In this document: in pieces, positions 37,051 to 54,430 of the stretch
Numbering within the stretch: position 1 is the stretch's first letter
Layout: each line of letters opens with the position of its first letter
Assembly: GCA_030674475.1 (NCBI GenBank)
Contig: JAUSCZ010000017.1
Span: 46,264 to 110,263, forward strand
Reading direction: 5' to 3'
DNA from: Candidatus Omnitrophota bacterium
GTDB lineage: Bacteria > Omnitrophota > Gorgyraeia > Gygaellales > UBA12090
DNA length: 64,000 nucleotides
Made by a program: the position numbers and the translations under genes
Notes under the pieces: generated by a model
What the model saw: the letters and a program-made list of their open reading frames with translations, nothing else
What the model was told of the DNA's origin: nothing
The model's database searches: none

Positions 37051-38157
37051 TTACCTGTTACTTAATATTTTCACTATTCCTGCCGCGGGTATTTTCTCCA
37101 GCCCTACATTTACATATGCCTCACGACTACTTAATTCATCTCCAATAATACCGTAAGACTGCCAAAGAAAATAACTAGCCGGCTTATCCCATTTTCCATA
37201 TTTTTTATCTGTAACTAACCTTAAGGTCTTTATTGCGTTCTGATAATCCTTGATATCATAATATAGTTTTCCAAGGAAAAACAGTACGTCATCGTAATAT
37301 TTACTTTCAGGGAATTCCTTCAATAAGGCCGCATAAGACTGTAATGCTAAGTCCATACGGTAAGCTAAATGGTAATTTCTGGCTTTATAAAATAATGCTG
37401 AATCCGAACTACCTTTAAGGTGCCTGAGCGCAGACCGAATGTATAAATTTTGATAAATATATACGAATTTATTTCCGAATATTTTAAAATAGAAATCCAT
37501 AAGATGATCAAAGATGTGACTTTGTTTCAAGATAGGCGTGGACCTGCGGGGTTCGCCCATAAGAGGCAAGACACGTCGATAGATCGCAATAATGTCTTTA
37601 TACTCCATCCCTGAGTATTGTTTTAATGCGGAAATTTTCTTTATCTCATCTAATAATTCTGGCTGGGCAGTCAAATCATCCAATGAATACATGTCACCTC
37701 TGAAATCAACAAAAACAGTATTCAATGCCGTATCAAATACACACCATTTGTTATTCAGGAAAACTTCATTCAAGGTATGCGGAGAAATACCATTTTTATC
37801 TAACAGCATTGCGTATCGGCTTGGGATACCTGCTATTCCCAAAAGCAGATTTAATGTTCTTGCCTGAAAATCGCAATATGCCTCAGCGTATATTAAAGAT
37901 TCTAATGGTTTACATGAATACGGCGTTCCTTGAAGAAATTCATTATTGACCACATAATTAAACAAAGATAAGGACTTTTCGTAATCAGTCCTATACCCAT
38001 TTGTTTCTTGGGCAACTATGGTGTTTAAAATTAATCTTTGATAGGCATGATATCGTAACCTATACGGAAGGAATAATGAAATTACTGGCGACAACAGTAT
38101 TAAAACAGTTGCTATTATAAGAAAAAGTCTGCAAATAAATTTTAAACGCTTATGCAT
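37051..38157 (-). CDS. Transglutaminase-like domain membrane protein with TPR-like C-terminus (paralogue of 10586-11629)
   Basis: N-terminal TM helix. AYCDFQARTLNLLLGIAGIPSRYAML...HTLNEVFLNNKWCVFD aligns with the paralogue's CDYQAKVFNVLLSKKGIPSRYAML...HTISEVYFHNRWVVFD. Confidence 0.5.
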   Translation of the reverse strand: MHKRLKFICRLFLIIATVLILLSPVISLFLPYRLRYHAYQRLILNTIVAQETNGYRTDYEKSLSLFNYVVNNEFLQGTPYSCKPLESLIYAEAYCDFQARTLNLLLGIAGIPSRYAMLLDKNGISPHTLNEVFLNNKWCVFDTALNTVFVDFRGDMYSLDDLTAQPELLDEIKKISALKQYSGMEYKDIIAIYRRVLPLMGEPRRSTPILKQSHIFDHLMDFYFKIFGNKFVYIYQNLYIRSALRHLKGSSDSALFYKARNYHLAYRMDLALQSYAALLKEFPESKYYDDVLFFLGKLYYDIKDYQNAIKTLRLVTDKKYGKWDKPASYFLWQSYGIIGDELSSREAYVNVGLEKIPAAGIVKILSNR

Positions 38158-38171
38158 TGTTATAAATATGC

Positions 38172-38528
38172 TTACGGCGAAGTTTCAACATTCTGATAAG
38201 CTAATAACATAGTCTTATATGTTTCCAACTCCTCTTTGAGCCTTTCGTATTCGCGGGTTTTCCAGTCAAGGAACTGCTGGATAAGCTGAAATTTTATCCT
38301 AATTCCCTGAGGGGTGAGCAGATACATATAGCTTAACTTATTCTTGGCATTCTTGAAGTTTTTTGCCTCTATTATGCCCTTGTCAATGAGGGCGTTGAGG
38401 AAGTAGTTAATCTTGCCCAGGCTTATTTTGAGTTTCAGGGCCAGGTCGCGCTGGGTTATGGCGGGATTTTGCTCTAACTCTTTGATAACAGAGAGGATTT
38501 TTTCGTGGTGCAATATGTCGGATTTCAT
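38172..38528 (-). CDS. MarR-type winged-helix transcriptional regulator (EPS-locus-associated family), copy 1
   Basis: MKSDILHHEKILSVIKELEQNPAITQRDLALKLKISLGKINYFLNALIDKGII is the wHTH. The true start is cat at 38526-38528, and the longer ORF-track start is an extension. 90% identical to copy 2. Confidence 0.65.
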   Translation of the reverse strand: MKSDILHHEKILSVIKELEQNPAITQRDLALKLKISLGKINYFLNALIDKGIIEAKNFKNAKNKLSYMYLLTPQGIRIKFQLIQQFLDWKTREYERLKEELETYKTMLLAYQNVETSP

Positions 38529-38574
38529 AGAAAAACTATGGGTCGATGGTCTATGGTTCATCTTTTTAAAATTC

Positions 38575-38958
38575 TTAAAGCAACCGTATAATCCCTTTTT
38601 CAAAATTAATCGTCAACTTGAAATTCTTCAAAAAGTCTAAGCCTAAAAGTCCATCTACAAAACCCTCTTCAGGTAAATCATGGCAAGCGACTTCTAAATT
38701 CTTCATTGTCTTACCTAACGCTTTAATACTTTTTAAACTTACCACTGGAACAATTTCAATTCCACTCCCGGTTACAATACGAGTACGGGAAGGGGAACCT
38801 CCCGGATCGCAGCCAATAGCTTCAGCTGCCTCAAAGGGAATCATAGTTCGCGAACAACCCGTGTCTAACGCTAAACGCAAGGTCCGTTCGGCATTCTTCC
38901 TAATTGTGCCCTCTATAATGATTATGGGAAATTTATGGTTAAAAGAAGTCTTTGACAT
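38575..38958 (-). CDS. Retropepsin-like (clan AA) aspartic protease
   Basis: LALDTGCSRTMIP contains the D-T/S-G catalytic motif in a retropepsin-like context; 127 aa. Confidence 0.7.
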   Translation of the reverse strand: MSKTSFNHKFPIIIIEGTIRKNAERTLRLALDTGCSRTMIPFEAAEAIGCDPGGSPSRTRIVTGSGIEIVPVVSLKSIKALGKTMKNLEVACHDLPEEGFVDGLLGLDFLKNFKLTINFEKGIIRLL

Positions 38959-39188
38959 TAAAACATTACCACCAAATCCTTTGGTATGGGCCCGGTATAA
39001 TCGATAGCAAGCGGTTCTTTATATTTCATCTGCTCTCTGTATATAGTGTCTCTCTTTTTACTGTGAGCAATTACCGCCCCCTTGCTTAACCGGTTCATCT
39101 TATCAAACTCATAGTTCGCCAGCAAGATCCACTCTTTAGGAAATCTCTTCCTAATGCTTATTAAGCTTTCCACTCTACTTTTTACCAT
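38958..39188 (-). CDS. Small partner protein of the retropepsin-like protease (hypothetical)
   Basis: 76-aa ORF translationally coupled (ATGA-type overlap) immediately upstream of the protease. Confidence 0.35.
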   Translation of the reverse strand: MVKSRVESLISIRKRFPKEWILLANYEFDKMNRLSKGAVIAHSKKRDTIYREQMKYKEPLAIDYTGPIPKDLVVMF

Positions 39189-39221
39189 TTTTCTTTACCT
39201 CCTGATTTAAGTTAAGAAAGT

Positions 39222-39330
39222 ATTTTGCTCTAACTCTTTGATAACAGAGAGGATTTTTTCGTGGTTTAAGATGTCGGATTTCATGGGAAAATCAAAGGTC
39301 GATAGTTTATAGTCAATAGTCAATGGTCCG
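39222..39330. repeat. Cassette-junction repeat, copy (partial: regulator-5'-end homologue + heptamer tract, no hairpin)
   Basis: ttttgctctaactctttgataacagagaggatttt...atgtcggatttcat followed by gtcgatagtttatagtcaatagtcaatggtcc. Homologous to 38440-38565, 39923-40106, 42530-42665, 46133-46262 and 47168-47305. Confidence 0.7.
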
Positions 39331-39431
39331 GAAAAAAATTACTTCTTTAAATAATTTCGAAAGGCGTGCAGCATTTTTGAGATGTCTTCACAACACTTAT
39401 AAAATAAATCAAATTCTGTAGATTTTCTGTG

Positions 39432-39710
39432 TCATCTGTATGTTAACGGATATTGCTCCGGATTAGCTAAGATTTCTGCGGATAAGTCTATATCTAACTT
39501 TGGCCAGTATAGATGATGATTATGTATCAACTTTACGTTAGTTATTGACGAAATATTAGCGTCTTTAAACCAAGGATACTCACTGAAAGATAAGAAATAT
39601 TCTCTATCTTTCAGGAAAATCCAAAATCCATGTTCTGAAATATTAGTTATTTCTGGCCTTAAAATGTTCTTTCCATTCTTTAATGATTTCATTCCTATGC
39701 CTTTCCACAA
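39432..39710 (-). CDS. DUF2442 family protein (TA-like pair with DUF4160)
   Basis: YPWF...LYWPKLDIDL motif pattern. Confidence 0.6.
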   Translation of the reverse strand: MWKGIGMKSLKNGKNILRPEITNISEHGFWIFLKDREYFLSFSEYPWFKDANISSITNVKLIHNHHLYWPKLDIDLSAEILANPEQYPLTYR

Positions 39711-39891
39711 TTTTTTGTAAAGTTCTTAGCTGCCTTTTAGAAAAACCAGTGTAATTTACCAATTCAACGGCTGGCTCCAACCAGAATTTCGCTTCCCCAT
39801 CCGGAGAAATAATATGAACATGCATCTTCATTTCTTCTTTAGAGAAAAAATGAAACCTGTAATTCCCTATTTTAAATACTGTCGGGCTCAA
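39643..39891 (-). CDS. DUF4160 family protein
   Basis: YRFHFFSKEE..MHVHI motif pattern; overlaps the downstream DUF2442 gene. Confidence 0.6.
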   Translation of the reverse strand: MSPTVFKIGNYRFHFFSKEEMKMHVHIISPDGEAKFWLEPAVELVNYTGFSKRQLRTLQKIVERHRNEIIKEWKEHFKARNN

Positions 39892-39907
39892 AGTTTACTA
39901 TCCCTCA

Positions 39908-40054
39908 TTAAACGATTTTATCCTTGTAAGTGCGATAAATCGCACCGCTACCGCGAATTTTCCGAATAAGTTTGCGCTGGGTTATAGCGGGGTTTTGCTC
40001 TAACTCTTTGATAGCAGAGAGGATCTTGTCGTGGTTTAATATGTCGGTCTTCAT
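39908..40054 (-). CDS. Truncated divergent paralogue of the MarR-EPS regulator (~48-aa mini-ORF) embedded in junction repeat
   Basis: MKTDILNHDKILSAIKELEQNPAITQRKLIRKIRGSGAIYRTYKDKIV. The first ~30 aa match the regulator N-terminus. The divergent tail LIRKIRGSGAIYRTYK is shared with the copies at 46133-46262 and 47168-47305. Confidence 0.4.
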   Translation of the reverse strand: MKTDILNHDKILSAIKELEQNPAITQRKLIRKIRGSGAIYRTYKDKIV

Positions 40055-40106
40055 GGGAAAATCAAGGGTCGATAGTCTATAGTCGATAGTCAATAGTCAA
40101 TGGTCC
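39923..40106. repeat. Cassette-junction repeat, full copy (hairpin GTGCGATAAATCGCAC + regulator-5' homologue + (GTCNATR)5)
   Basis: The hairpin at 39930-39945 has a 6-bp stem and a TAAA loop. Then comes cgctaccgcgaattttccgaataagtttgcgctgggtta..ttttgctctaactctttgata.cagagaggat. Then the heptamer tract gtcgata gtctata gtcgata gtcaata gtcaatg. Confidence 0.7.
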
Positions 40107-40173
40107 AGAAAAAAATTACTTCTTTAAATAATTCCGAAAGGCATGTAGCATTTTTGAGATGTCTTCGTAACGC

Positions 40174-40473
40174 TTATAAAAAAATGCCTTTAATTTTGTT
40201 TTTGGTTCCCGCTTTAGCGGGATAACACAGGCTAATATTGATCTTTTCATATAATGTTTCAGGGGCAATGTCAGCGCCATTTGGCCAGGCAATTGTACCG
40301 CCTTCAATTTTTGCTTTTTTGAAGAATTGTAAATTCTTTAATGGCTTAAAAATATATCCTTTCCTAATGTACTCTATAAAATTCACATCTCCACCTTTAC
40401 CATCATCAAACATAATATAATAAACATAATTATTTTTATACTTAATTGTTTTTACTTCATTCATATCCCACAT
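40174..40473 (-). CDS. DUF2442 family protein (second copy)
   Basis: [17 protein letters not shown]-terminal motif. Confidence 0.55.
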
Positions 40474-40475
40474 AT

Positions 40476-40620
40476 CTCACCTCAAGTTAAAGGGATAATT
40501 TCTCTTATTGTTTTGCCTGCTCTAGCTAATTCCCAATCTTCTTTCAATTCTGTGGAATGGAGATCTATCCATTCCCTGAATAATGTTACCTCTTTAGATA
40601 GTTGCGAATTGTTACCACCT
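40476..40620 (-). pseudogene. DUF4160 gene remnant (C-terminal fragment only)
   Basis: The minus-strand translation ...FREWIDLHSTELKEDWELARAGKTIREIIPLT* resembles a DUF4160 C-terminus. No N-terminus or start codon is present. Confidence 0.35.
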
Positions 40621-40771
40621 CATTCAAAGAACCTATTGATATCTGGATAAAACGCGATAAATCTGTATCGGAATTCCTGCCTTCACCTTCAGCGATATTT
40701 AAACTGATAGAAACTGCGGCTCTGTTTCACTGGCGAACTTGACTGATTCTTGCCATCCCGTTTTTTCTCTA

Positions 40772-41170
40772 TCCTGCTAAAGCAGGTCTTAGCAGTTTTT
40801 TAATTTTTGTAATAAATTTTCTGGCGTCTTCAAGAACACTTTCCGCCTCTTCGGCTGAACCTGTGTAAAATGGCTCATAATCTCCGTCCTCTCTTAAGTC
40901 CTTATCGCGTGAGAGTATTTAGTAATATTCTCTTGGAAGTATACCGGTTTTAACAAAATGGAGGCTAATCATTGTCTGTAAACCAGAATGTGTTTTAGCG
41001 TAAAATCCTTTTGAAGCCAATAGAGCCATTCCAGCGTGATATACCATATAATACCCTCTTGAGATAGCATCCTCATACATCTTACTTTCATAAAGCTTCT
41101 GCGCGGCCTGAAGCTTGCGCTCCGCCTTCTCTATAAGTTTCGTTATTCTTAACCTTAGTTTCTCATCCAT
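40772..41170 (-). pseudogene. HEPN-domain toxin gene interrupted by in-frame TAA (HEPN of MNT/HEPN pair)
   Basis: ORF 40919-41170 encodes ...YYMVYHAGMALLAS...LPREYY, then TAA (40919-40921). The same frame continues for 49 codons as ILSRDKDLREDGDYEPFYTGSAEEAESVLEDARKFI..., which is the canonical HEPN C-terminal R-x-x-x-DY region. Confidence 0.6.
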
Positions 41171-41490
41171 AATATTTTACCTTCATTCTCTATATTCTTC
41201 ATAAATGGCGTCTCTAAGCCCTTTAAGTATGCGTATTGGCTAATATCGTAAACCTTTGTAGATATAGGCCGGCCGTATTTTAAGACAAGGGAAGCGGCGA
41301 TTCTGGTAATCTTTTTCAAAAAGTCTAACCTATTGCCCGAAGCAACTATCAAAAAATCTATATCAGATTCTTTGTTTAATTGATCCCTGCTGGCAGAGCC
41401 AAAAAGAATTACCGCTTGAATTTTTCTTTTGTATTTTTTTACTACTTGCCGGACAAAACTATCAATTTCCTTTTCATCTTGTTTGTTCAT
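41155..41490 (-). CDS. Minimal nucleotidyltransferase (MNT) antitoxin-type protein
   Basis: LFGSASRDQLNKESDIDFLIV is the GS..D.D nucleotidyltransferase motif. Confidence 0.75.
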   Translation of the reverse strand: MNKQDEKEIDSFVRQVVKKYKRKIQAVILFGSASRDQLNKESDIDFLIVASGNRLDFLKKITRIAASLVLKYGRPISTKVYDISQYAYLKGLETPFMKNIENEGKILWMRN

Positions 41491-41597
41491 CTGTTCCCTT
41501 GCCTATCAGGAATCAATGTTGTCAATAAGTCCTCACTGAATTATCCATTTTTGGGTATTTGTTCACGGTCTGAACGCATACTTACAGAAAATTTATA

Positions 41598-41616
41598 TTA
41601 TCATATTTTATGATAA
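41598..41616. promoter_or_regulatory. Palindromic putative operator TTATCATAtttTATGATAA upstream of MNT/HEPN operon
   Basis: Perfect 8-bp inverted arms with a 3-bp spacer, ~110 bp upstream of the MNT start at 41490. Confidence 0.3.
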
Positions 41617-41689
41617 AATCAAGGGTTTTTTAGCTTTACTTGTTACTTGTAACAGTGAACGGAGGAAACTTGCAATTTTTCCCCTCACC

Positions 41690-41755
41690 TAACCCCTCCC
41701 CGCCTCCCCTTGGTAAGGGGAGGATTTCTTACCTCTCCCACAAGGGGAGAGGGAA
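41690..41755. repeat. GC-rich tandem hairpins (CCTCCCC-ttggtaa-GGGGAGG; CCTCTCCC-acaa-GGGAGAGG)
   Basis: Two adjacent stem-loops in a 350-bp non-coding gap. Related to the motif at 50189-50224. Confidence 0.5.
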
Positions 41756-41845
41756 TAGCGGGAGAAGATTTTCCCCTGCTTGGTGAGAAGCTGTAAAAAA
41801 ATACCTAATTATGGCGTAAGTCAGGCTTATTTTGTATTCAAATTT

Positions 41846-42130
41846 TTATTTCCTAATCGTCCAAAAATCAGCAGCTTGGGTTTCTAAATATTCGTAGGGC
41901 ATAGTGAAGTAGCCGCATTTACCCCAAGTCTTGCCCCAGGAATTTCGGATTAAGAAACATTTTTGTTTTTGGTTGTATCCGACTGCTAACACCGCATGTC
42001 CGCCCACCGGCCGTTCATTCTTTTTAGGCATAGGGACAATGCCGGTGCGTTTGACTTTTTCGCTCTCAAAGGATTCATAAACTGTAAAACCGAAGGTAAA
42101 AGGATAACCATCTGCCAGACAAACGAGCAT
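41846..42130 (-). pseudogene. Papain-like (C1) cysteine peptidase, C-terminal fragment
   Basis: GGHAVLAVGY...IRNSWGKTWGKCGYFTMPYEY carries the His/Asn half of the catalytic triad. The N-terminal Cys-containing half is absent. Confidence 0.55.
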
Positions 42131-42149
42131 CTCGGTTACACTCCTTCAT

Positions 42150-42245
42150 CTTCTCCATAATTCTTCCTGTTGTTTCTCCATTAATTTTCCTATCTCATCA
42201 CTATGGTCATAATAACAAGAAAGGGCATCGTAACTTACGTAATCT
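42150..42245 (-). pseudogene. DUF433 gene remnant (C-terminal fragment)
   Basis: Minus-strand translation YVSYDALSCYYDHSDEIGKLMEKQQEELWRR* aligns to the C-terminus of the DUF433 protein at 46815-47153 (SAIYDALSYYYDHADEIERLMEKNREDQWKK). Confidence 0.4.
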
Positions 42246-42628
42246 TAGTACGTTGCGTCCACATTGCTTAATTTAGGTAAAACTTCGGCATTTTGATAAG
42301 CTAATAACATGCTCCTGTAGGTTTCCATTTCTACCTCAAGCCTTTCGTATTCGCGGGTTTTCCAGTCAAGGAACTGCTGGATAAGCTGAAATTTTATCCG
42401 GATTCCCTCTGGCGTTAACATATACATATAGCTCAACTTATTCTTGGCATTCTTGAAGTTTTTGGCCTCTATTATACCCTTGTCAATGAGGGCGTTGAGG
42501 AAGTAGTTAATCTTGCCCAGGCTTATTTTGAGCTTCAGGGCCAGGTCGCGCTGGGTTATGATGGGGTTTTGCTCTAATTCTTTGATAACAGAGAGGATTT
42601 TTTCGTGGTTTAATATGTCGGGTTTCAT
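42245..42628 (-). CDS. MarR-type winged-helix transcriptional regulator (EPS-locus-associated family), copy 2
   Basis: MKPDILNHEKILSVIKELEQNPIITQRDLALKLKISLGKINYFLNALIDKGII...; near-identical to copy 1. Confidence 0.65.
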   Translation of the reverse strand: MKPDILNHEKILSVIKELEQNPIITQRDLALKLKISLGKINYFLNALIDKGIIEAKNFKNAKNKLSYMYMLTPEGIRIKFQLIQQFLDWKTREYERLEVEMETYRSMLLAYQNAEVLPKLSNVDATY

Positions 42629-42694
42629 AGAAAAACTATGGGTCGATAGTCGATGGTTCAGGAACCGTTTTTTAAGAATTTTCGCGCGAATTTG

Positions 42695-43120
42695 CTATCC
42701 ATCCCTATGGGACAGTAACATTAAAAATTGCCGCGGAGTTAAAATCGATACCCCAGACCAGACTTTTAGCTGTAAAATATGAGGATCTCCAGTAATAATG
42801 TATTTAGCTGCAGAAGCTAAAGCACAAGCCAAAACCTTGTCATCGCTTGGATCATCCTTAACCACCGAGTCTATTTTTATATCTGGATATAACGCTGCAA
42901 TATCTGTAATTCCGGCAAATAAATCTTCGCAAGATATATTATGTTTTTTCAAGCGGGAGAAGAATTTTGGCCGTTTTAAAACATCTTTTAACTCTTCCAG
43001 AAAAGCAGGTGTCATGCAAAGAGTAAAAAGCCCCTTTTCTACCGCCATTAATAATTCATGGGAAGGCCCTTACCAAAGAAGCGCGGAAATAAGCACATTT
43101 GTATCTATAACGATTTTCAT
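42695..43120 (-). pseudogene. PIN-domain toxin (TIGR00305-like) interrupted by in-frame TAA
   Basis: From ATG (cat 43118-43120) the sequence reads MKIVIDTNVLISALLW, then TAA (43070-43072), then GPSHELLMAVEKGLF...ITGDPHIL...ILTPRQFL. The ATGA overlap with the upstream AbrB-type antitoxin is retained. Confidence 0.6.
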
Positions 43121-43347
43121 CTTTTTTCTTTACGATAGGCGTGGACCTCTTTCACTATTTCTTTTAAAGATAAAGGCTTTTCTTTAATACGATCAGCTAT
43201 TTCAGAAAGCTTAGAAGGATTAATCTTTTTTACAATAAATGTATCCCCGTCTACAAACCAAGCAATTTTATCAGAAGGCCTAAAAATAGATTGCGCGATT
43301 TTAGGGAGAACTAACGTTCCATTCTTATCAATTTTCAGTGTTTGCAT
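43117..43347 (-). CDS. AbrB/MazE/SpoVT-type antitoxin
   Basis: MQTLKIDKNGTLVLPKIAQSIF...GDTFIVKK looped-hinge helix pattern. Confidence 0.65.
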   Translation of the reverse strand: MQTLKIDKNGTLVLPKIAQSIFRPSDKIAWFVDGDTFIVKKINPSKLSEIADRIKEKPLSLKEIVKEVHAYRKEKR

Positions 43348-43673
43348 TTGTCATCTCCTCCTATATTAACAGTCAATACTTCTCATTGTTACTCGCCTCC
43401 ACAGGTGGTCGCGCTGGATTATGGCAAGAGCGTCTATCTCAACTAACGCTTCAAAACTTCCATATTCGGCATGAAGATGCGGCGGCGCTACATATCTCAG
43501 ACATGGATAATTTCCCTCTTTAAATTAGGAAAAATCTCTTTTTGATTGAACATCAAACCTTCTCCAGCATGCGAATTCATTTTAGGGACATCTGTTGAGC
43601 GAAAAATTGAAGTACTGCTAAGACAGACTTCCGCCTTAAACCCGGAAGGCATCGTTGTATTAATATTTTAAAA

Positions 43674-44519
43674 TTATCGTTTGACAAAATTTTCCAGAAA
43701 TCCGATAATTTTTGGATAAAGAGGCAAGGCCTCTTGAATAAACTTCTCTAAGCGGCCGTAAAGAATCTCCAAATACTCATGGGCAAGGATATTTCTTAAA
43801 TTAGCGAACTTGGACAGCCCTCTTGCTTCTGTTTCGCTTAAACCCGCTAAAAATCCGAAATTAAACAGCGCCTCTTCATAAGTCCGCGGCATTAGCTTTT
43901 TCTCGGAAGCTAAGGTTATTTTAGCGATGTCTATAGTAGCGTTGAGAATATTCTCTGCCCATCTTTCAATGCTACGCCTTTTCATTTTGTCTTTCTGATA
44001 ATCGTCAAAAGTCACCATTTGACAGCTGGGAGTCTCTTTAATCTCTAAATCTAAAAATTGCAGCCTTACTAACAATCTTTCCTTTTGCTCCACGGTAAGC
44101 GACCGGGCTTGCTTATAAATCCGATAAAAATCTTCAGAAAATTCCAAGAAATCTTCTGTTTCCGTGCTCGCCTTTAAATAAGTTTCCAAGTGCAATCTTT
44201 CATCCTTAATCACTAAAGGAATTCCAGTCTTAATTACGCAGGAAACTAAAGACGCCGGCGCGTAATTTAAACAAACCAAATCAATATCTTTATGAATAAT
44301 CCCGGAAATATCCGAGTAAACTTCACTTTCATTTTCATAATAAATTTTATTTTCCGGAGCTTCTGACTTTTGAGGCACGAAATAAACCGCTACATCAAAA
44401 TCTGATTCCGCCGTCTGCCGGCCTTCGGAATAAGAACCAAAAACAAAAGCCATTAAAACTTCTTTTCTTTTTAGAAAATACTCTTTTAATGATTCTATTG
44501 TATCTTTTAAATTATCCAT
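43674..44519 (-). CDS. Fused nucleotidyltransferase (MNT) - HEPN (DUF86/HepT-like) protein
   Basis: N-terminus FGSYSEGRQTAESDFDVAV (MNT); C-terminus LRNILAHEY (R-x4-H HEPN motif). 281 aa in one polypeptide. Confidence 0.6.
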   Translation of the reverse strand: MDNLKDTIESLKEYFLKRKEVLMAFVFGSYSEGRQTAESDFDVAVYFVPQKSEAPENKIYYENESEVYSDISGIIHKDIDLVCLNYAPASLVSCVIKTGIPLVIKDERLHLETYLKASTETEDFLEFSEDFYRIYKQARSLTVEQKERLLVRLQFLDLEIKETPSCQMVTFDDYQKDKMKRRSIERWAENILNATIDIAKITLASEKKLMPRTYEEALFNFGFLAGLSETEARGLSKFANLRNILAHEYLEILYGRLEKFIQEALPLYPKIIGFLENFVKR

Positions 44520-44595
44520 TTTGAAATGTCTTCACAGCGCTTATAAAGCAAATCGGGCACAGGGAGAATCGCTGGTTAAAAGTGCAGCTTCAACA

Positions 44596-44826
44596 TTACA
44601 CCTTCTCCAATATGCGCACTTCTTCTCCGTCCATCTGTTGCGCGGCAAATGCAAGCGCTGCCAAGACAGACTCCTTTTTTAAAGTCGGATATTCTTTCAG
44701 GATATCTTCAACCGTCATCCCGGAAGCCATACATTGGAGAATGAGCGCTACGGAAATACGCGTTCCCTTAATAATCGGCTTCCCGGAAAGAATCTCCCGG
44801 TCACAAGTTATCCATTTCTTAATCAT
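44596..44826 (-). CDS. DUF433 family protein
   Basis: ILSGKPIIKGTRISV motif typical of DUF433. Confidence 0.65.
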   Translation of the reverse strand: MIKKWITCDREILSGKPIIKGTRISVALILQCMASGMTVEDILKEYPTLKKESVLAALAFAAQQMDGEEVRILEKV

Positions 44827-45092
44827 TTTATTTTACCTCCGCGATTTGTACCAATAGTGCCTATGGAATTAAAGAAAATACCTGGTAAGCCGCAAAGCAC
44901 TTGTTCTTCTTTATTAGGGTACTGGGGTTTTCTGTCGGGATAATACAAATTCTTCCCTTTTAGGGAATTTTCTTGCTAAGGCGTATGTCTGGATTGCCCG
45001 GTCAAGCCGGGCAATGACAAAAGTGGAGTTTCACGACAGTCCCCTGACTCATTCCATACCTTTAGTTCCTCAAATTTAAAGGGCATAGGATA

Positions 45093-45130
45093 GTCGATGG
45101 TCTATGGTCTATGGTCTATGGTCTATGGTT
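45093..45130. repeat. Heptanucleotide tandem repeat (GTCNATR)5-6
   Basis: gtcgatg gtctatg gtctatg gtctatg gtctatg gttta. The same unit occurs in 2-5 copies directly upstream of each regulator/mini-ORF start (38541-38562, 39298-39329, 40064-40106, 42641-42660, 46248-46262). Confidence 0.8.
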
Positions 45131-45750
45131 TAACTTAAACTAAAATCAGTAAGCTCTTTCTTAATGATTGCATCGTCAACTTCAAATCCCTTCAGATAGT
45201 CAACCTTTTCCGTGTAGTCTATATCTTTAAAATAGCTCAGTTGCGCCCGGAATAACTTTTCATTAAATTCAGAGCCAAAGATGTGTCTGGTTTTTTTAAT
45301 AATCTTATGGATATCGTAATAGTCTTTCATTACAAAGTAAAGGTCCACATAATCTTTCCACTTCGCCCTCCGGCCTAAGGCATAAGCCTTCATTGCCGCT
45401 AAGGTTAATAAATCCGGCAGTTTTATCACCTGATCAAAATTTTTAGAAAAGCTTATCTTAAATGGATAGCAAAAAAATGTAAATCTTACTTTATGGATAA
45501 CCACTGTATATTGGCCATCTTCATCTCTTAAGACACTATCTATCTTTTTAAACTGTATAATTTTTCTTCTAATTTTCCAATTATCAAACTCTTTATCGGT
45601 AAAAAGATCGAAATCAATTGAACGGCGATGACCCGCAAAAATAGCTATGGCTGTTCCTCCCGCTAAACCAAAGTCTTTAGAAAATGACTTAACCAGCGGT
45701 AAAAGCTCCAGCTGCTCAGCGGTTAGAATCTCCGGATGAATTCTACGCAT
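45130..45750 (-). CDS. AbiEii/AbiGii-family nucleotidyltransferase toxin (type IV TA)
   Basis: GLAGGTAIAIFAGHRRSIDFDLF motif. Confidence 0.6.
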   Translation of the reverse strand: MRRIHPEILTAEQLELLPLVKSFSKDFGLAGGTAIAIFAGHRRSIDFDLFTDKEFDNWKIRRKIIQFKKIDSVLRDEDGQYTVVIHKVRFTFFCYPFKISFSKNFDQVIKLPDLLTLAAMKAYALGRRAKWKDYVDLYFVMKDYYDIHKIIKKTRHIFGSEFNEKLFRAQLSYFKDIDYTEKVDYLKGFEVDDAIIKKELTDFSLS

Positions 45751-46000
45751 ATTTCGCGAAATATAATTTGAAATAGTTTATAATTTTTAGGTCGTAATTA
45801 ACTCGTTTTTGCCGCAGCTGTTTTTTAAAAATTCTGGAAATCTTTTTAATCCCCAAGATAGAGATTAATCCCTTAAAATCGGAGAAATCTCCATAATTTA
45901 AAACAGACTCCACAATTGCCTCTTTAGAGAGGGATTTATAGTCTTTAACATACCAAATTAAATACGGTTTCTTTTTGATAAAATTAGTAAGTGTCAGCAT
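45743..46000 (-). CDS. Hypothetical small protein, putative cognate antitoxin of AbiEii-like toxin
   Basis: 85-aa ORF overlapping the toxin start; no family recognised. Confidence 0.3.
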   Translation of the reverse strand: MLTLTNFIKKKPYLIWYVKDYKSLSKEAIVESVLNYGDFSDFKGLISILGIKKISRIFKKQLRQKRVNYDLKIINYFKLYFAKYA

Positions 46001-46132
46001 GCTTTGATACTGGTTAGTTCTACTCTGGGCGTTGGAGGATTAATTGCCTTTCATCAGTTAAACCCAAAGTCCTGCTAACAACGGTCTGACATCTTCGTCA
46101 AGATAAAGCTTTACTTCTTCCACGGCTCTTCC

Positions 46133-46262
46133 TTGTAAGTGCGATAAATCGCACCGCTACCGCGAATTTTCCGAATAAGTTTGCGCTGGGTTAGGGCGGG
46201 GTTTTGCTCTAACTCTTTGATAACAGAGAGGATTTTCATAGAAAAACTATGGGTCGATGGCC
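46133..46262. repeat. Cassette-junction repeat copy (hairpin + regulator-5' homologue, internal deletion, 2 heptamers)
   Basis: The hairpin gtgcgataaatcgcac at 46139-46154 is followed by cgctaccgcgaattttccgaataagtttgcgctgggttagggcggggttttgctctaactctttgataacagagaggatttt, then cat and gggtcgatgg. It encodes the mini-ORF MKILSVIKELEQNPALTQRKLIRKIRGSGAIYRTYKEEPWKK. Confidence 0.7.
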
Positions 46263-46274
46263 TGGAGACTCGTA

Positions 46275-46520
46275 TTATACAGCTCCTATAGTAGTTATCT
46301 CAACCATATGATGTTTTTTACGGGCATCAGATACAATCTCTTCTATCTTCACTGCCACAGCATCCCCAATCCAGTCAGCGCCGCACTGTGAACATACGGT
46401 AGCTGGGACATCCCTTACCACTACTACCCCAAAGCCCAAGTCCGCGGTAAAAGTAGTCTTCCCGGATTTTTTAGTTCCCCCGCAGAGAGGACATCTGCTC
46501 GCGTCTGATTCAATCACCAT
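46275..46520 (-). CDS. YgiT/MqsA-type zinc-finger antitoxin-like protein
   Basis: CPLCGG...CSQCG zinc ribbon. Confidence 0.6.
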   Translation of the reverse strand: MVIESDASRCPLCGGTKKSGKTTFTADLGFGVVVVRDVPATVCSQCGADWIGDAVAVKIEEIVSDARKKHHMVEITTIGAV

Positions 46521-46524
46521 CGTC

Positions 46525-46833
46525 TCATCTCCTTGTTCTATAATCTGATTGAAAATGATCTAAATCCGGTCTATATGCGGTAACGATAAAACAGTATGTG
46601 CCCTCTGAATCAAAAGCTGCAACCACATGAAACGGCTCTTCTCTAATCCATCCCAAGAATAAAGCGCTTGGATACGGTTTATTGTGAGGGTAATCCTCTA
46701 TAATTTCTCCTGACAATAACACTTTCTTAACTGTATCCCGGAAAATTTCTCTTTCCGCCATTCTCTCAAGAGCATGTCTTTGCCATTCTATTCTACCATT
46801 TATTATCGCTATACTTAATTTTTCTCTATCCAT
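46525..46833 (-). CDS. DUF4258 family protein (putative toxin)
   Basis: WQRHALERMAEREI...EDYPHNKPYPSALFLG...FIVTAYRPD pattern. Confidence 0.55.
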   Translation of the reverse strand: MDREKLSIAIINGRIEWQRHALERMAEREIFRDTVKKVLLSGEIIEDYPHNKPYPSALFLGWIREEPFHVVAAFDSEGTYCFIVTAYRPDLDHFQSDYRTRR

Positions 46834-47153
46834 CTATATTTTCCGGGAAAAATACCTGGTAAGCCGCAAAACACTTGTTCTTTCTTCTTCCACTGATCTT
46901 CCCTGTTCTTCTCCATTAATCTTTCGATTTCATCAGCGTGATCGTAGTAATAAGAAAGGGCGTCATAAATGGCGGATAAAGAAAGATGCGGAAATTCCCT
47001 AGCTAATTCCTCAGGGAGAATTCCCTCTTTGACTATGTAAAATACAACAGACCGGACAGGAAAACGGGTGCCCTTAATTATAGGCTCCCCTCCCTGAATC
47101 CTCGGATTGTGTGTTATATAATAATGATTTACTTTCTCTATAACCTCGCTCAT
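46815..47153 (-). CDS. DUF433 family protein
   Basis: IQGGEPIIKGTRFPV motif. Confidence 0.65.
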   Translation of the reverse strand: MSEVIEKVNHYYITHNPRIQGGEPIIKGTRFPVRSVVFYIVKEGILPEELAREFPHLSLSAIYDALSYYYDHADEIERLMEKNREDQWKKKEQVFCGLPGIFPGKYRWIEKN

Positions 47154-47167
47154 TATGTCACCTCCTG

Positions 47168-47305
47168 GTGAGTGCGATAAATCGCATCGCTACCGCGGAT
47201 TTTCCGAATAAGTTTGCGCTGGGTTAGGGCGGGGTTTTGCTCTAACTCTTTGATAACAGAGAGGATTTTATCGTGGTTCAATATGCCGATTTTATGAATA
47301 TTCAT
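47168..47305. repeat. Cassette-junction repeat copy (hairpin variant + regulator-5' homologue, no heptamers)
   Basis: gtgcgataaatcgcatcgctaccgcggattttccgaataagtttgcgctgggttagggcggggttttgctctaactctttgataacagagaggatttt...; the mini-ORF ends in ...LIRKIRGSDAIYRTH. Confidence 0.7.
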
Positions 47306-47363
47306 CTGTTCAGGGCTTGAACATATATTAACAAAAGTATCGCAATTGTCAAGAGGAGAGTCT

Positions 47364-48452
47364 TTAAGATGGTATTTCCATGGACAAATCTTTTAAAGTA
47401 GCAACCTTTTTTAAGTGAGTCACCTTTTGTTTTATACCTTGATAGGCGGCAGAATTAGATTTTAGAGAAAGCAAGGAATTCTTTATTTCCTCAACTGATT
47501 CTACCTTAATGCCGGCACCGGATTTACAGATTACTCTTTCATTAGATGTCTCCAAGCCAGGGATGCTGGAGAAGAAAATCATTGGCAGGCCTTTGGCTAA
47601 GCTTTCGCTGATGGTCAGGCCGCCGGCTTTGGTGAGAACAACATCAGAAACCGACATTAGTTCATCAACATAATCAATCAAGGGGTAAATTTTAACATTC
47701 ATGAGATTTAGCTTGGTCAGGCGGTCAAAGAGCTTCTGGTTCTTGCCGCAGATAACTAATAATTGAATATCACCGGCTAAGGCCTGGACAATTTCCTCTA
47801 TGGGGCCGATGCCTACGGCTCCGGTCATAATTAAAGCGGTGAATTTTTCCGGGTCAACTCCTAACTTTTGGGCCGCTGTTTTTCTATCTGAAGGTAGATA
47901 AAATTTCTCTCTTACCGGAATGCCATAAACTTTTATTTTATCTTCTATTATTCCTTTTGTCAATAAGCAGTCTTTCACATGATCGCAGGAAGCTATGTAG
48001 GTATCCACGCCTTCTCCTATCCAGTAGGGATGCAGGGTGTAATCAGTTATAATGGTTATCAGGCGAAAAGCATATTGGGGGTATTTTTTCTTGAATATAC
48101 TAAGAACACTGCTGGTTAAAAAGTGGGTGGAAATAACAACGTCGGGTTTTTCTTTTTTTAATAGATCAACAAACGGCTGGCAAGCGAGATAATCAGAGAG
48201 GAGGCGAAAATAATTATTAGCGAAGAAGGACGATAGGCGGTAGAGAAGATACCATGCCCAGGGAAACTTGGTAATAAGGAAGATATAGCCCTTGGAATAT
48301 AAAAACTTAACCACACAGTTAGAATAGTCCAAGATGTCAATAAGCTTTAGGCTTAAGTCGAGCCGGGTTTTTTTAAGATATTCGTAGAGGGCTTCCGCGG
48401 CTTTTTGGTGGCCGGCGCCGGCGGAGGCATAGACGATAAAGACTTTCTTCAC
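47364..48452 (-). CDS. GT28-family glycosyltransferase (MGDG-synthase / UgtP-like)
   Basis: N-terminal IVYASAGAGHQKAAEAL motif typical of MGDG-synthase-like GT28 proteins, with a C-terminal GT-B domain. Confidence 0.65.
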   Translation of the reverse strand: MKKVFIVYASAGAGHQKAAEALYEYLKKTRLDLSLKLIDILDYSNCVVKFLYSKGYIFLITKFPWAWYLLYRLSSFFANNYFRLLSDYLACQPFVDLLKKEKPDVVISTHFLTSSVLSIFKKKYPQYAFRLITIITDYTLHPYWIGEGVDTYIASCDHVKDCLLTKGIIEDKIKVYGIPVREKFYLPSDRKTAAQKLGVDPEKFTALIMTGAVGIGPIEEIVQALAGDIQLLVICGKNQKLFDRLTKLNLMNVKIYPLIDYVDELMSVSDVVLTKAGGLTISESLAKGLPMIFFSSIPGLETSNERVICKSGAGIKVESVEEIKNSLLSLKSNSAAYQGIKQKVTHLKKVATLKDLSMEIPS

Positions 48453-48470
48453 TTGAAAAATCTCATCTTA

Positions 48471-48488
48471 GGTGCGATAAATCGCACC
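48471..48488. repeat. Isolated copy of junction hairpin GGTGCGATAAATCGCACC
   Basis: 7-bp stem and TAAA loop, 19 bp upstream of the GT28 start. The following ~20 bp (gctacgcgacgcgaa) are only loosely related to the junction repeat. Confidence 0.6.
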
Positions 48489-48615
48489 GCTACGCGACGC
48501 GAATAACCCAGCACTATTTTCATGCTCATTGGTATCCTGCTTTCGGCGGGGTATAACTGCTTCATTAGTTATTGATTTTTATAAATAATAATACTGGCCA
48601 TGCTCCTGGGGGGAC

Positions 48616-52114: not shown

Positions 52115-52120
52115 TATAAA

Positions 52121-52372
52121 TTAGCCTCCATTCCTTTTAGAAGCATCCAAAACCGTTATCCCAATAAGCTTCTTATTATGATAACGCAGCAATACTCCAT
52201 TATCCAGCATTTTGCTGTTTGTAGCTTTCTGCGGACGCTGAAGGCTAATATATAAAACATCCGCCCCTTTATCATAATCAACCCAGAATCTATTAGAAGG
52301 GAATTTTATTAAATGCCGCGTAGTTTCAAAAACCTCTTTTATATACTCTTTCTCTAACGTTCCTTTTGCCAT
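52121..52372 (-). CDS. DUF2283 family protein (putative antitoxin-like partner)
   Basis: VDYDKGADVLYISL motif. Confidence 0.5.
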   Translation of the reverse strand: MAKGTLEKEYIKEVFETTRHLIKFPSNRFWVDYDKGADVLYISLQRPQKATNSKMLDNGVLLRYHNKKLIGITVLDASKRNGG

Positions 52373-52656
52373 ACCATTGCCTCCTTTTTGATAGCAGACG
52401 TAAAATAAGCAGTAATCACGAATCCGTCGCTTTTGGAAACTTCCTTATATATGACAGACAGATATAAATTATTCTTAATCTTTACCGCCGCTATCAACGC
52501 GTTTTGATATCCTTTAACTATAAGATCGGGAGCCTCTATTGTCCGCAGGATTTCATCGTAATATCCCGCCAAGTCGTCATGGTTTTCCACAATATGAAAC
52601 CATCTCTCTACCGTAAGACGGATAGGAACATTATTCTGTGAATATACGATATCCAT
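52354..52656 (-). CDS. DUF4258-like small protein (putative toxin partner of DUF2283)
   Basis: 100 aa with an FVITAYFT C-terminal motif. Overlaps the DUF2283 gene start. Confidence 0.4.
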   Translation of the reverse strand: MDIVYSQNNVPIRLTVERWFHIVENHDDLAGYYDEILRTIEAPDLIVKGYQNALIAAVKIKNNLYLSVIYKEVSKSDGFVITAYFTSAIKKEAMVWQKER

Positions 52657-53734
52657 TCTTTCGGGTATCCGACAATATGTTTATCATCTTCAAGACTTCT
52701 TCAACCTCTATACTTTTAAGGCACTCCTGTCTTCTTGAGCATGGGCGAAGGCGAAACCCGCGGTAACAGGGGCTACATTCTATAGCCTTCCTTAAAACAA
52801 TGTGCCGTGTCTCATCCGGCGGATACGGCCCATACACCTTTGGGTCAACCGGGCCGAAGAAAGAAATGGTTTTTCTTTTTAAAGCTGAGGCTATGTGCAG
52901 GAGGCCGCCGTCGTTTCCGATAAATAAATCCGCCTTGTTGATAATAGCGGCTGATTGGGTTAGCGTGGTTCTGCCGGCTAAATTTATAACCTTGCACTGA
53001 AGCTCTGTTTCTATATTTAAGAGCAAATCCCTTTCCTTTAAATCTCCTAATATTATAACCGTAACTTTATATTTTTCAATGATTTTATTGACTAAAAGGG
53101 CGAATTTTTCCTCGGGCCAGCGTTTGATTTTTGCCTCAATTCCCCAACTTGCCCCTCCGCCGGGTGAAAGCGCGATAACCGGGAAGGAGTCATCAATACG
53201 ATACTCCTTAAAAATGCTTTCCGCGCATTGCTTGTCTTCATCGCTTAGATACAATTCCAGGTCCTGATATTTCGGCTCTATCCCGATTAATTCCAAAAGG
53301 CCGTTATAATATTCCACCACATGCTGGTCTTCGTAGCCGCTTAATTTTACTGACTTGGTTAAATAGATTCCCCGGTTTTTATAGTTATAGCCGATCCTTT
53401 TCCTTATCCCAGCCAGCCATAAAAAGAAGCCAAAATTGGAAGATAAGGATAAATCTATGGCCAGGTCAAATCGCGCTTTCTTTATTTGCCGGATAAAAGA
53501 ACTGAATCCTTTAAGCCATTCTAATTTTGAAACTAATAACAATTGCTTAAAGTCATCCCTCTCGTATATAAATATTTCATTAATAAAAGGATTGTTTCTT
53601 AATAGGGGAGCAGCGCGTTTATTACAGAGAAAACCTAATTTACCTTCTGGAAAGGCGTCTTTGAGGGTATGAATCAGGGGAGTAGTAAATAAAACATCAC
53701 CGATGCCAAAGGGATTAACGATGAGAATACTCAT
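52631..53734 (-). CDS. Glycosyltransferase family 9 (heptosyltransferase-like)
   Basis: MSILIVNPFGIGDVLFTTPL N-terminus; GT9 C-terminal GNDGGLLHIAS. Confidence 0.8.
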   Translation of the reverse strand: MSILIVNPFGIGDVLFTTPLIHTLKDAFPEGKLGFLCNKRAAPLLRNNPFINEIFIYERDDFKQLLLVSKLEWLKGFSSFIRQIKKARFDLAIDLSLSSNFGFFLWLAGIRKRIGYNYKNRGIYLTKSVKLSGYEDQHVVEYYNGLLELIGIEPKYQDLELYLSDEDKQCAESIFKEYRIDDSFPVIALSPGGGASWGIEAKIKRWPEEKFALLVNKIIEKYKVTVIILGDLKERDLLLNIETELQCKVINLAGRTTLTQSAAIINKADLFIGNDGGLLHIASALKRKTISFFGPVDPKVYGPYPPDETRHIVLRKAIECSPCYRGFRLRPCSRRQECLKSIEVEEVLKMINILSDTRKNGYRIFTE

Positions 53735-54040
53735 TCAAGTATTTCTCAATCGTCTGGCCAGCTCTTGGTAGACTTTCATATCCTCTCGTTTACCGATAGC
53801 ATAAATAATTACTTCTTTATTCTTTTGGTCCAGCTCATAGAGGATCCGGTATTTTTTCTGAAAGGAATAAAGTTTTCTGTACCCGGTAAGGTCAAAACCC
53901 GCCTTGTCACCTAAAGGTTTCCCCAATTCCGGAGAATTCGCAAGTTTCTTAAATTGAGCGAATGCCTGCTGTTGAATAGATTTATCCAGGCTTCTGAATT
54001 CTTTTTCGGCTTCAGTTTTCCACTTCAAACTATAAGCCAT
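53735..54040 (-). CDS. RelE/ParE family type II toxin
   Basis: 101 aa. The RILYELDQKNKEVIIYAIGKRED pattern is typical of RelE/ParE. Confidence 0.65.
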   Translation of the reverse strand: MAYSLKWKTEAEKEFRSLDKSIQQQAFAQFKKLANSPELGKPLGDKAGFDLTGYRKLYSFQKKYRILYELDQKNKEVIIYAIGKREDMKVYQELARRLRNT

Positions 54041-54317
54041 ACTGTTCTTGCAGTTTTTCCAGAGAAATTTTCTTGGCGGGGCTGATTTTCCGCTGCTGGA
54101 TCACCTTATAAACAGCTATATGCTCCAGTAATTCTTCCAAGTTTTCTAATTTTTGTTTTATTTTTTCATACCGCGCGTAATCCATTAACACGGCTTCAGG
54201 CGAATTGCGTTTAAAAATGAAAATATCATGCAAGGGGAGTTCATTCTCATATTTTTTGAATGACCTTACCAGTTCTGTGCTACTGATAATTTGTTTTTTT
54301 TCAAAGGTAGTGCTCAT
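54030..54317 (-). CDS. Phd/YefM family antitoxin
   Basis: N-terminal ISSTELVRSFKKY...PEAVLMDYARYEKI pattern; overlaps the toxin start. Confidence 0.6.
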   Translation of the reverse strand: MSTTFEKKQIISSTELVRSFKKYENELPLHDIFIFKRNSPEAVLMDYARYEKIKQKLENLEELLEHIAVYKVIQQRKISPAKKISLEKLQEQYGL

Positions 54318-54381
54318 CCGTATCTCCTTTTTGCTTAATTACATACAATAAACATATTTCTATACAAAATATAACACATAT

Positions 54382-54411: not shown

Positions 54412-54430
54412 CAAAATCAAAGAATCAGCA

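Follow-up and report, generated by a model that had tools for sequence, protein, structure and literature searches.

Why should two closely similar copies of an exopolysaccharide (EPS) regulator gene lie among small toxin-antitoxin (TA) and defence cassettes in the middle of a polysaccharide operon? The locus in question is a 64-kb stretch of contig JAUSCZ010000017.1 from a Candidatus Omnitrophota bacterium (assembly GCA_030674475.1), here called the window, in which every gene lies on the minus strand. An earlier note on this DNA had proposed that the regulator gene is a landing pad, duplicated anew as cassettes accumulated, and that its two copies bracket the cassettes. We find that both copies belong to a 9.2-kb array (about 38.16-47.36 kb) punctuated by six co-oriented copies of the regulator 5' end, all on the minus strand (alignment, blastn). 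The cassettes, here and in similar arrays of related loci, have the form of a regulator 5' fragment with a cassette-specific breakpoint, a payload and a (GACYATN)n tract. To explain this arrangement we lean towards Campbell-type accretion of cassettes through the shared regulator 5' segment, with the regulator gene as the landing pad.

Both regulators are full-length members of the MarR_EPS family, in agreement with the pair of open reading frames (ORFs) of about 90% identity that the earlier note described.

38172-38528, minus strand: regulator copy A, full-length MarR_EPS, 118 aa (ORF call, TIGR04176, HTH_24).
42245-42628, minus strand: regulator copy B, full-length MarR_EPS, 127 aa (ORF call, TIGR04176, HTH_24).

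Against TIGR04176 (NCBIfam, MarR family EPS-associated transcriptional regulator; curated cutoff 88 bits), A scores 121.5 bits and B 117.9 bits, both spanning model positions 3-100/105, and the winged helix-turn-helix is recognised in both by Pfam HTH_24 (E 6e-12 and 2e-11), with weaker MarR matches too. BLASTP aligns the two with 105 of 118 residues identical (89%). The heptamer tract noted ahead of each regulator is also there, at 38542-38558 and 42642-42658. Furthermore, the genes flanking the array (GmhB, epimerases, DegT, GT2, GT9, ManC, NeuB, Wzx-like proteins and radical SAM enzymes) place the regulators within an exopolysaccharide/lipopolysaccharide gene cluster.

That this pair brackets cassettes stands, but the extent given for the arrangement does not: the array reaches 47.3 kb, not 42.6 kb, and lies between an MGDG-synthase-like glycosyltransferase (GT) gene and the resident regulator. 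In addition to A and B it contains four truncated copies and smaller remains of the regulator region.

39222-39284, minus strand: f1, truncated regulator 5' copy, homology stopping at nt 63 (blastn/alignment).
39974-40054, minus strand: f2, truncated regulator 5' copy, homology stopping at nt 81.
46183-46239, minus strand: f3, truncated regulator 5' copy with a 24-nt internal deletion, homology stopping at nt 81.
46183-46263, minus strand: f3 plus a single heptamer-like unit (alignment).
47216-47305, minus strand: f4, truncated regulator 5' copy, homology stopping at nt 81/82, native promoter type upstream.
43405-43425, minus strand: regulator remnant GCCATAAtCCAGCGCGACC, about nt 66-85, 11-20 nt (alignment).
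41560-41576, minus strand: decayed native operator region, CGTTCA-N5-TGAACA (motif search).

The remnant at 43405-43425 is a scar left by deletion across the microhomology GCCATAA.

The antisense strand of four of the six copies (A, f1, f3 and f4) carries a terminator-like hairpin, CTCTTTGATAACAGAGAG, followed by a T-run, which may be a chance feature of a conserved coding segment or may block antisense transcription.

38478-38495, 39234-39251, 46213-46230 and 47246-47263, plus strand: antisense terminator-like hairpin sites.

The state of the locus before insertion is seen in relatives. Our comparison covers 37 related loci, L001-L037; a contig scan by exact peptide patterns from A, which were too strict, returned four distant loci only. 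L013-15 present an empty site, in which the GT gene, a 71-nt spacer and a single regulator 86% identical to A follow one another, and their run of DegT, GT2, epimerase, GmhB and GT is colinear with that of the window, at 79-89% nucleotide identity. Further empty sites are found in L017, L018 and L031-37. The 71-nt spacer of L013-15 holds TTGACA-17-TAAAAT and a palindrome, TGTTCA-N5-TGAACA, abutting the start codon; overall, the native control region reads TTGACA-16/17-TAxxxT plus this palindrome, and heptamers are absent from it. Where the regulators are 70-75% identical, the order is GT, a few small genes, promoter plus palindrome and one regulator, and fragment repeats are absent, the native control region being kept down to about 70% regulator identity. 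The ancestral order was thus GT, a σ70-like promoter and palindrome in 71 nt, one regulator and variable polysaccharide genes. The window retains the corresponding elements at the upstream end of the array.

47364-48452, minus strand: MGDG-synthase-like glycosyltransferase, last conserved gene ahead of the array (synteny with L013-15, L032 and L035).
47352-47347 and 47330-47325, minus strand: TTGACA and TAATAT of the native regulator promoter (promoter scan).
47307-47323, minus strand: candidate operator TGTTCA-N5-TGAACA (exact match, once in 64 kb).

Because f4 is preceded by the same promoter and palindrome as the empty loci, it is the original 5' end of the regulator gene, and the 9.2 kb between f4 and A is inserted DNA.

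Copies of the regulator 5' end number 59 across the window and 29 related loci from ENA (including Hainich groundwater) and JGI metagenomes (blastn), and similar arrays of 2-6 copies occur in at least 10 other contig lineages from different projects and assemblers. Together with the empty sites of L013-15, these copies bear out the proposal that the regulator gene is a landing pad that is duplicated again as cassettes accrue. The point at which the regulator fragment breaks off goes with the cassette that it joins. Breakpoint nt 58-63 is joined to the 76-aa/retropepsin cassette (f1 in the window, L023, L027 and L030), nt 81/82 with a hairpin to DUF433 and other payloads (three copies in the window; L003, L004, L024, L027 and L030), nt 102 to a PIN cassette (L021, L023, L027 and L028), nt 112 to a YgiT tail (L020 and L026) and nt 138 to a zeta-toxin cassette (L001 and L010). 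The same cassettes recur in differing order between arrays, at 88-94% identity. Two contigs of one sample share a cassette of ~99% identity, which in L001 precedes the first full-length copy and in L010 the last, and the block of identity runs from one heptamer tract to the next. Furthermore, the unoccupied regulator copy of L001 is a chimera with a variant switch near nt 38, which is the product expected from a crossover within the shared segment.

The two full-length copies of the window differ in origin. A and B are neither near-identical nor each other's closest relatives, as a recent tandem duplication would leave them: their synonymous divergence (dS) is 0.435 and nonsynonymous divergence (dN) 0.058 (dN/dS 0.13), about 10 metagenomic proteins are nearer to A than B is, and A is 94% identical to P0001 vs 89% to B. 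B is identical to the NCBI protein cluster P0016 from a Candidatus Omnitrophota metagenome-assembled genome (MAG); exact-sequence look-ups of A, B and P0016 found no record. On the 3' side of A, a Transglutaminase-like/TPR gene begins 14 nt past the stop codon, and a Transglut_core/TPR gene also follows the regulator, at one gene's remove, in L035-37 and in the P0063 contig. On the 3' side of B lie a DUF433 remnant and then the last 94 codons of a C1 peptidase, the latter piece sharing 91% identity with the intact gene found behind the regulator in L001; the intact peptidase gene overlaps the regulator stop codon in L001, L010 and L012.

37051-38157, minus strand: Transglutaminase-like/TPR protein, first gene of the variable polysaccharide region (ORF and domain scan).
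42162-42233, minus strand: DUF433 3' remnant, debris next to B.
41846-42130, minus strand: papain-family C1 peptidase, C-terminal 94 codons, debris next to B.

A is therefore the resident copy, in its native 3' context. B, given the dS of 0.435, the proteins closer to A and the foreign neighbours, is an imported second full-length copy, still constrained, from another array with a C1-peptidase neighbour, and neither a recent local duplicate nor an assembly artefact.

Two observations concern these neighbours. The polysaccharide cluster of the window contains two transglutaminase-core paralogues (10586-11629 and 37051-38157), of which the second, with TPR repeats, is the regulator's conserved neighbour on the downstream side. 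A papain-family C1 peptidase overlaps or abuts MarR_EPS in L001 (10386-11126), L010 (10386-11126), L012 (1432-2172) and L007 (upstream of 1362), which suggests a recurrent regulator-peptidase pairing that includes the distant MAG L007.

What, then, is the heptamer tract that precedes the regulator copies? The repeat unit is (G/A)AC(C/T)AT(N), and the two-unit search pattern ACYATNGACYATNGAC, with up to 1 mismatch, has 13 matches in the window, which form five tracts, every one of them on the minus strand and within 38.5-45.1 kb, against a chance expectation of 0.03.

38542-38558, minus strand: heptamer tract before A.
39298-39328, minus strand: heptamer tract before f1.
40068-40105, minus strand: heptamer tract before f2.
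42642-42658, minus strand: heptamer tract before B.
45093-45130, minus strand: longest heptamer tract, 5.3 units, followed by a 23S_rRNA_IVP gene remnant.

The tracts stand 14 nt upstream of the start codons of A, B, f1 and f2, with two or three units before A and B. Across the loci compared they are restricted to arrays, where they occur in the sense orientation only, at the 3' edge of a cassette and directly before a regulator start; every single-copy native-type locus lacks them, and a promoter scan found no σ70-like site in any tract. The heptamer tract therefore belongs to the inserted, cassette-borne DNA and not to the native promoter or operator.

A second gene is associated with the heptamers. 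L020 and L026 carry an intact 118-aa 23S_rRNA_IVP/four-helix-bundle gene (PF05635, 131 bits) with heptamer tracts on both sides, and the window contains remains of such genes.

L020 minus strand, reverse complement 4094-4465, and L026 2463-2834: intact 23S_rRNA_IVP/four-helix-bundle gene (PF05635, related to the diversity-generating retroelement protein Avd).
45021-45086, minus strand: four-helix-bundle 5' remnant, ATG at 45086.
44519-44547, minus strand: four-helix-bundle tail remnant.
40560-40760, window: four-helix-bundle remnant.
40106-40200, minus strand: four-helix-bundle gene tail.
39331-39407, minus strand: four-helix-bundle gene tail.

Possibly this gene is a cassette in its own right, or a mobile unit linked with the heptamers; in our literature search, no account of 23S_rRNA_IVP genes flanked by heptamer tracts was found. 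A perfect hairpin resembling a miniature inverted-repeat transposable element, CATTGCCCGGCTTGACCGGGCAATC, breaks into the four-helix-bundle remnant at 44992-45018, and a close copy of it lies behind a variant of the hairpin element (described below) in L003 (~9650-9680).

If the tract is not the native control region, how might the cassettes be expressed? The native palindrome TGTTCA-N5-TGAACA occurs in 23 of the 37 loci, once in each of 22 and three times in L003, with invariant arms and a variable spacer. It stands directly before the MarR_EPS start codon in Omnitrophota loci (e.g. L013 9983-9999 and L031 965-981), and an exact palindrome is also present ~110 nt upstream of the regulator in Turneriella (L006, 1921-1937) and ~760 nt upstream in L007. 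We take it as the best candidate for the operator of the TIGR04176 family, which is uncharacterised; A and B both lack it. Copies of the native promoter and palindrome stand ahead of cassettes in the window, at f4 and, in decayed form, at 41560-41576, and at three L003 sites, so that the first cassettes could be read from a regulator-controlled promoter, and some cassettes may thus come under the regulator's control through these copies, with no part for the heptamers. Furthermore, since the cassette genes share the orientation of the operon and no convincing or strong minus-strand terminator lies between cassettes, read-through is plausible, and the cassettes are probably transcribed from the native regulator promoter (~47.3 kb) and the operon.

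The nt 81/82 breakpoint leads into a conserved element. The fragments f2, f3 and f4 each run into the same ~56-nt element with the palindrome GTGCGAT-TT-ATCGCAC, which occurs four times in the window, the fourth time alone, upstream of the GT gene at 48472-48487.

39921-39976, minus strand: hairpin element fused to f2.
46130-46185, minus strand: hairpin element fused to f3.
47163-47218, minus strand: hairpin element fused to f4, with a Shine-Dalgarno sequence and the DUF433 start behind it.
48469-48497, minus strand: native stand-alone hairpin GTAGCGG-GTGCGATTTATCGCAC, GmhB-GT intergenic (same element upstream of GT in L013).

As GTAGCGG-GYGCGATTTATCGCRC, the element stands alone upstream of housekeeping genes, namely GT in the window and in L013 (8807) and dehydroquinase in L010 (489), and it is always sense-oriented, in intergenic or 5' untranslated positions of polysaccharide genes. 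Pairing in its six-pair stem reaches 98%, the variants being one C-G to U-A swap and one U-G hybrid, and its covariation exceeds that of about 92-95% of shuffles (23-39 of 500 reach the observed value), which is weak structural evidence. The stem variants broadly track the contig, with U-A in all four window copies and C-G in L003, L010 and L013; L027 holds both variants and L030 a hybrid. An Rfam scan of 37-49 kb gave no meaningful match, the hairpin element included.

Two interpretations of this element were rejected. It is not a coding extension of the truncated ORFs, as a 2-nt indel in the L003 copies shifts the frame, and on inspection it is not a XerC/D dif-like or attC-like site, the 3' arm being unconserved and R/L boxes absent. 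As a lead only, there is a likeness between its 5' flank, GCGGTAGCGGTG, and GGCGGTAGCGTG, the RfaH ops signal of Escherichia coli (PMC5995543); no NusG/RfaH paralogue was found among the window ORFs scanned.

The cargo consists of small two-gene modules with domains known from type II TA and abortive-infection systems: PIN_3/AbrB-like, MNT/HEPN, nucleotidyltransferase-HepT, AbiEii, DUF4258/YgiT-like, DUF4160/DUF2442 and DUF433.

46815-47153, minus strand: DUF433, cassette behind f4.
46525-46833, minus strand: DUF4258, cassette behind f4.
46275-46520, minus strand: YgiT/MqsA-like zinc-finger ORF, cassette behind f4.
45130-46000, minus strand: DUF6922-like ORF and AbiEii-family nucleotidyltransferase, 91% identical to L001 7789-8657.
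44596-44826, minus strand: DUF433 (domain scan).
43674-44519, minus strand: nucleotidyltransferase-HepT fused gene (domain scan).
42695-43347, minus strand: AbrB-like/PIN cassette, 94% identical to L003 4492-5363.
41155-41490, minus strand: MNT-type nucleotidyltransferase, part of the MNT/HEPN cassette.
40174-40473, minus strand: DUF2442 ORF (domain scan).
39432-39891, minus strand: DUF4160/DUF2442 cassette (domain scan).
38575-39188, minus strand: 76-aa ORF and retropepsin-like aspartyl protease cassette (domain scan).

The DUF433/DUF4258/YgiT cassette (46275-47153) has homologous blocks in L003 and L001, the MNT/HEPN cassette (40769-41490) is 94% identical to L004 1017-1763, and the retropepsin cassette shares its left junction, at nt 58-63, with L023, L027 and L030. 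Two toxin genes are broken: the PIN gene (PIN_3) has an in-frame stop at codon 17 (43070-43072) and is intact in its L003 homologue, and the HEPN gene has one at codon 84 (40919-40921) and is intact in its L004 homologue, the partner gene being open in both cases. Such nonsense-mutated toxins are as expected of an old cassette graveyard.

Two more TA-like insertions lie in the operon relative to the empty locus L013. One (53735-54446), a Phd/YefM-ParE pair with its own promoter-like site, separates ManC from the GT9 heptosyltransferase gene, two genes that directly overlap in L013; the other (52116-52682), a ~100-aa ORF and a DUF2283-like ORF, lies between GT9 and DegT. Neither carries a regulator fragment or a heptamer tract.

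How could such an array have arisen? The loci display an empty site, repeats in one orientation, cassette-specific breakpoints, a shuffled order, one relocated unit and one chimera. Under Campbell-type accretion, a cassette would enter or leave when the fragment that it carries recombines with any resident copy of the segment. Every insertion would strand the earlier 5' end as a truncated copy and bring in a new heptamer tract and 5' end, keeping the distal regulator intact. The exchange would be of the RecA type, carried out by the host over the identical fragment core of 35 nt or more, and microhomology deletions, such as that at 43405-43425, would follow. This scheme would involve a circular intermediate and an enzyme, both of which we infer. 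Among ~55 window ORFs scanned (~10 were unscanned) there is no tyrosine or serine recombinase of the integrase/resolvase kind, only insertion sequence remnants, and the Pfam gene tables of L001, L003, L004 and L010 list no recombinase domains; host homologous recombination is therefore favoured. Moreover, IMG/VR does not contain the fragment's 22-mer core, and blastn of the full junction unit against PLSDB plasmids and INPHARED phages gave no match, so that no link to a known mobile element was found.

Several points weigh against this scheme. Evidence of a recombinase, a circular intermediate or polymorphic reads was not obtained, and none of the 37 loci has the terminal overlaps of a circular contig. 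Fragment similarity is 0.784 within arrays vs 0.772 between them (permutation p = 0.27, a crude comparison in which two copies are 1 nt off register), so ongoing homogenising recombination is not demonstrated. Many junctions inside the array fall outside the fragments, which indicates that illegitimate joining contributes too. The contigs are short-read metagenome assemblies, in which strain chimerism within repeats is possible. Finally, at least eight unrelated cassette types end exactly at the heptamer tract, and the sequence ahead of the tract differs from type to type. Such endings would not be expected from plain homologous recombination, and they hint at a specific site or a slippage hotspot.

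Exact endings of this kind bring in a serious rival to Campbell-type accretion, namely site-specific recombination at the heptamer tract or the hairpin by a trans-acting enzyme. The array would then be an integron-like platform in which a recombinase encoded in trans treats the tract or the nt-81/82 hairpin junction as its attachment site, and the cassettes would be cis-mobilisable units comparable to attC cassettes, to clusters of attC sites lacking integron integrases (CALINs) and to integrase-less satellites. The strict co-orientation of the cassettes behind a promoter at the array head would suit such a platform, as would the fixed nt 81/82 breakpoint with its conserved hairpin before at least four payloads in five or more arrays, the 98% pairing of that hairpin with its one C-G to U-A swap, and the ending of all independent cassette types at tracts of 2-5 units, as if crossover registers differed. 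We nevertheless consider it unlikely. The scanned window ORFs and the four gene tables contain no tyrosine or serine recombinase, the fragment breakpoints vary between cassettes (58, 63, 66, 73, 81/82, 102, 112 and 138), and the hairpin is also a native intergenic element before housekeeping genes in empty loci, with weak covariation (23-39 of 500 shuffles equal it), no visible R''/L''/L'/R' attC architecture and no Rfam match. A wider proposal, which we regard as speculative and doubtful, is that an Omnitrophota clade has evolved a gene-capture platform independent of integron integrases. In it, the ~80-nt regulator start and (GACYATN)n would form a universal junction and the autoregulated promoter would serve as array promoter, and units of fragment, payload and heptamer would be swapped between strains by a heptamer/hairpin recombinase or by host recombination alone.

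Modular mobility might also be dispensed with altogether, if local unequal crossing-over duplicated the regulator region and TA modules were inserted singly by illegitimate recombination and then decayed. The TA modules at two other operon junctions that lack a regulator fragment, the many irregular internal junctions and the decay evident in the nonsense-mutated toxin genes are in agreement with this. It becomes improbable in view of identical cassette-plus-breakpoint units in varied orders across independent arrays, the 99%-identical cassette at different positions in L001 and L010, the A-B dS of 0.44 with closer relatives of A elsewhere, and the foreign neighbours that accompany B. Less probable still is the reading of the earlier note, in which the heptamer tract is a promoter/operator bound by the regulator and places the cassettes under exopolysaccharide control. 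The position of the tracts, 14 nt upstream of four start codons, invites it, yet the ancestral control region is free of heptamers down to about 70% regulator identity, the exact palindrome lies upstream of the regulator even in the distant L006 (Turneriella) and L007, and the tracts are confined to arrays, also flank the unrelated four-helix-bundle gene and contain no σ70-like match. The palindrome is missing at A and B as well. Coupling of cassette expression to the regulator thus finds no support by the heptamer route, but the native promoter and palindrome copies that precede cassettes at f4 and at three L003 sites leave a modified form of it possible. An assembly artefact, in which collapsed or chimeric strain variants gave false duplicate regulators, was named by the earlier note as an outcome that would undo its claim. 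The window does come from a metagenome-assembled genome and its repeats are short; yet the copies are 10% divergent with 4.1 kb of unique sequence between them, about 10 proteins are closer to A, and at least 10 contig lineages, obtained by different projects and with different assemblers, carry equivalent multi-copy arrays. The copies are genuine, and we give an artefact hardly any weight.

Is such an array already known under another name? What is known of gene-cassette arrays comes mainly from integrons and from accretion at tRNA genes that an integrase drives. In sedentary chromosomal integrons and CALINs, the attC cassette arrays are rich in TA genes, and the array of the window resembles them in its small, co-oriented, mostly TA-type cassettes, its recurring junction element, its head promoter (47325-47352), the order shuffled between strains and the decay of cassettes. 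Unlike them, it has no intI among the ORFs scanned and no attI, attC boxes (RYYYAAC ... GTTRRRY) are not visible on inspection and Rfam gives no match, and its junction consists of a heptanucleotide tract and part of a resident gene. Tandem accretion at a target gene has been described for arrays of integrative and conjugative, integrative and mobilizable and cis-mobilizable elements, for staphylococcal cassette chromosome islands at rlmH and for Prochlorococcus tycheposons with partial tRNA repeats (bioRxiv 10.1101/2020.12.28.424599; reviewed in PMC5812530). As in those systems, direct repeats of a target-gene end flank successive cargo modules, the target gene is rebuilt at one end of the array (A is intact), relatives have an empty site and many units lack an integrase of their own. 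The array differs from them in that its repeat derives from the start of a protein-coding regulator gene (60-140 nt of the 5' end, with sequence upstream of it) and not from a tRNA or a gene 3' end, that its breakpoints are cassette-specific (nt 58-138), with the L001 crossover near nt 38 and no fixed att core, that no integrase was found in any unit of the arrays examined, and that its units measure just 0.7-1.5 kb. It thus resembles target-gene accretion and integrons in architecture and fails their defining tests, which are an integrase, a fixed att core and attC. A and B themselves exceed the curated cutoff and, like other TIGR04176 members, belong to a polysaccharide locus; unlike that usually single-copy family, two intact and four truncated copies occur here, and the intact ones have lost the family's upstream palindrome.

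The location of the array also has a parallel. According to two preprints, hypervariable surface-polysaccharide loci of Omnitrophota and SAR11 have blocks of biosynthetic genes replaced (bioRxiv 10.64898/2026.05.20.726742, 10.64898/2026.06.07.730766). Similarly, the regulator here marks the border between conserved sugar-precursor genes and the strain-variable polysaccharide region, and such a conserved/variable border is expected to be a recombination hotspot. By term search, neither text mentions MarR or has a passage on fragment-punctuated TA arrays, and the one searched for a heptamer does not mention it; our literature search likewise found no description of MarR_EPS fragment arrays. The array is distinctive in that 5' pieces of a protein-coding regulator gene punctuate it, in that it lies in a surface-polysaccharide operon that looks essential, in that it recurs across many groundwater Omnitrophota populations, and in that no recombinase is visible within it or close by. 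Should the units move as supposed, streamlined uncultured bacteria would have another route to gather and shuffle TA and defence genes, and gene collecting would be tied to a strain-variable cell-surface locus on which phages select. By-products of the comparison are the candidate operator TGTTCA-N5-TGAACA for MarR_EPS and a conserved intergenic hairpin of polysaccharide operons.

A last feature of the array lies between the C1-peptidase fragment and the MNT/HEPN cassette, where a G+C-rich stretch (41640-41790) contains the inverted repeat CCTCCCCTTGGTAAGGGGAGG at 41703-41723 and is partly common to L003 2751-2824.

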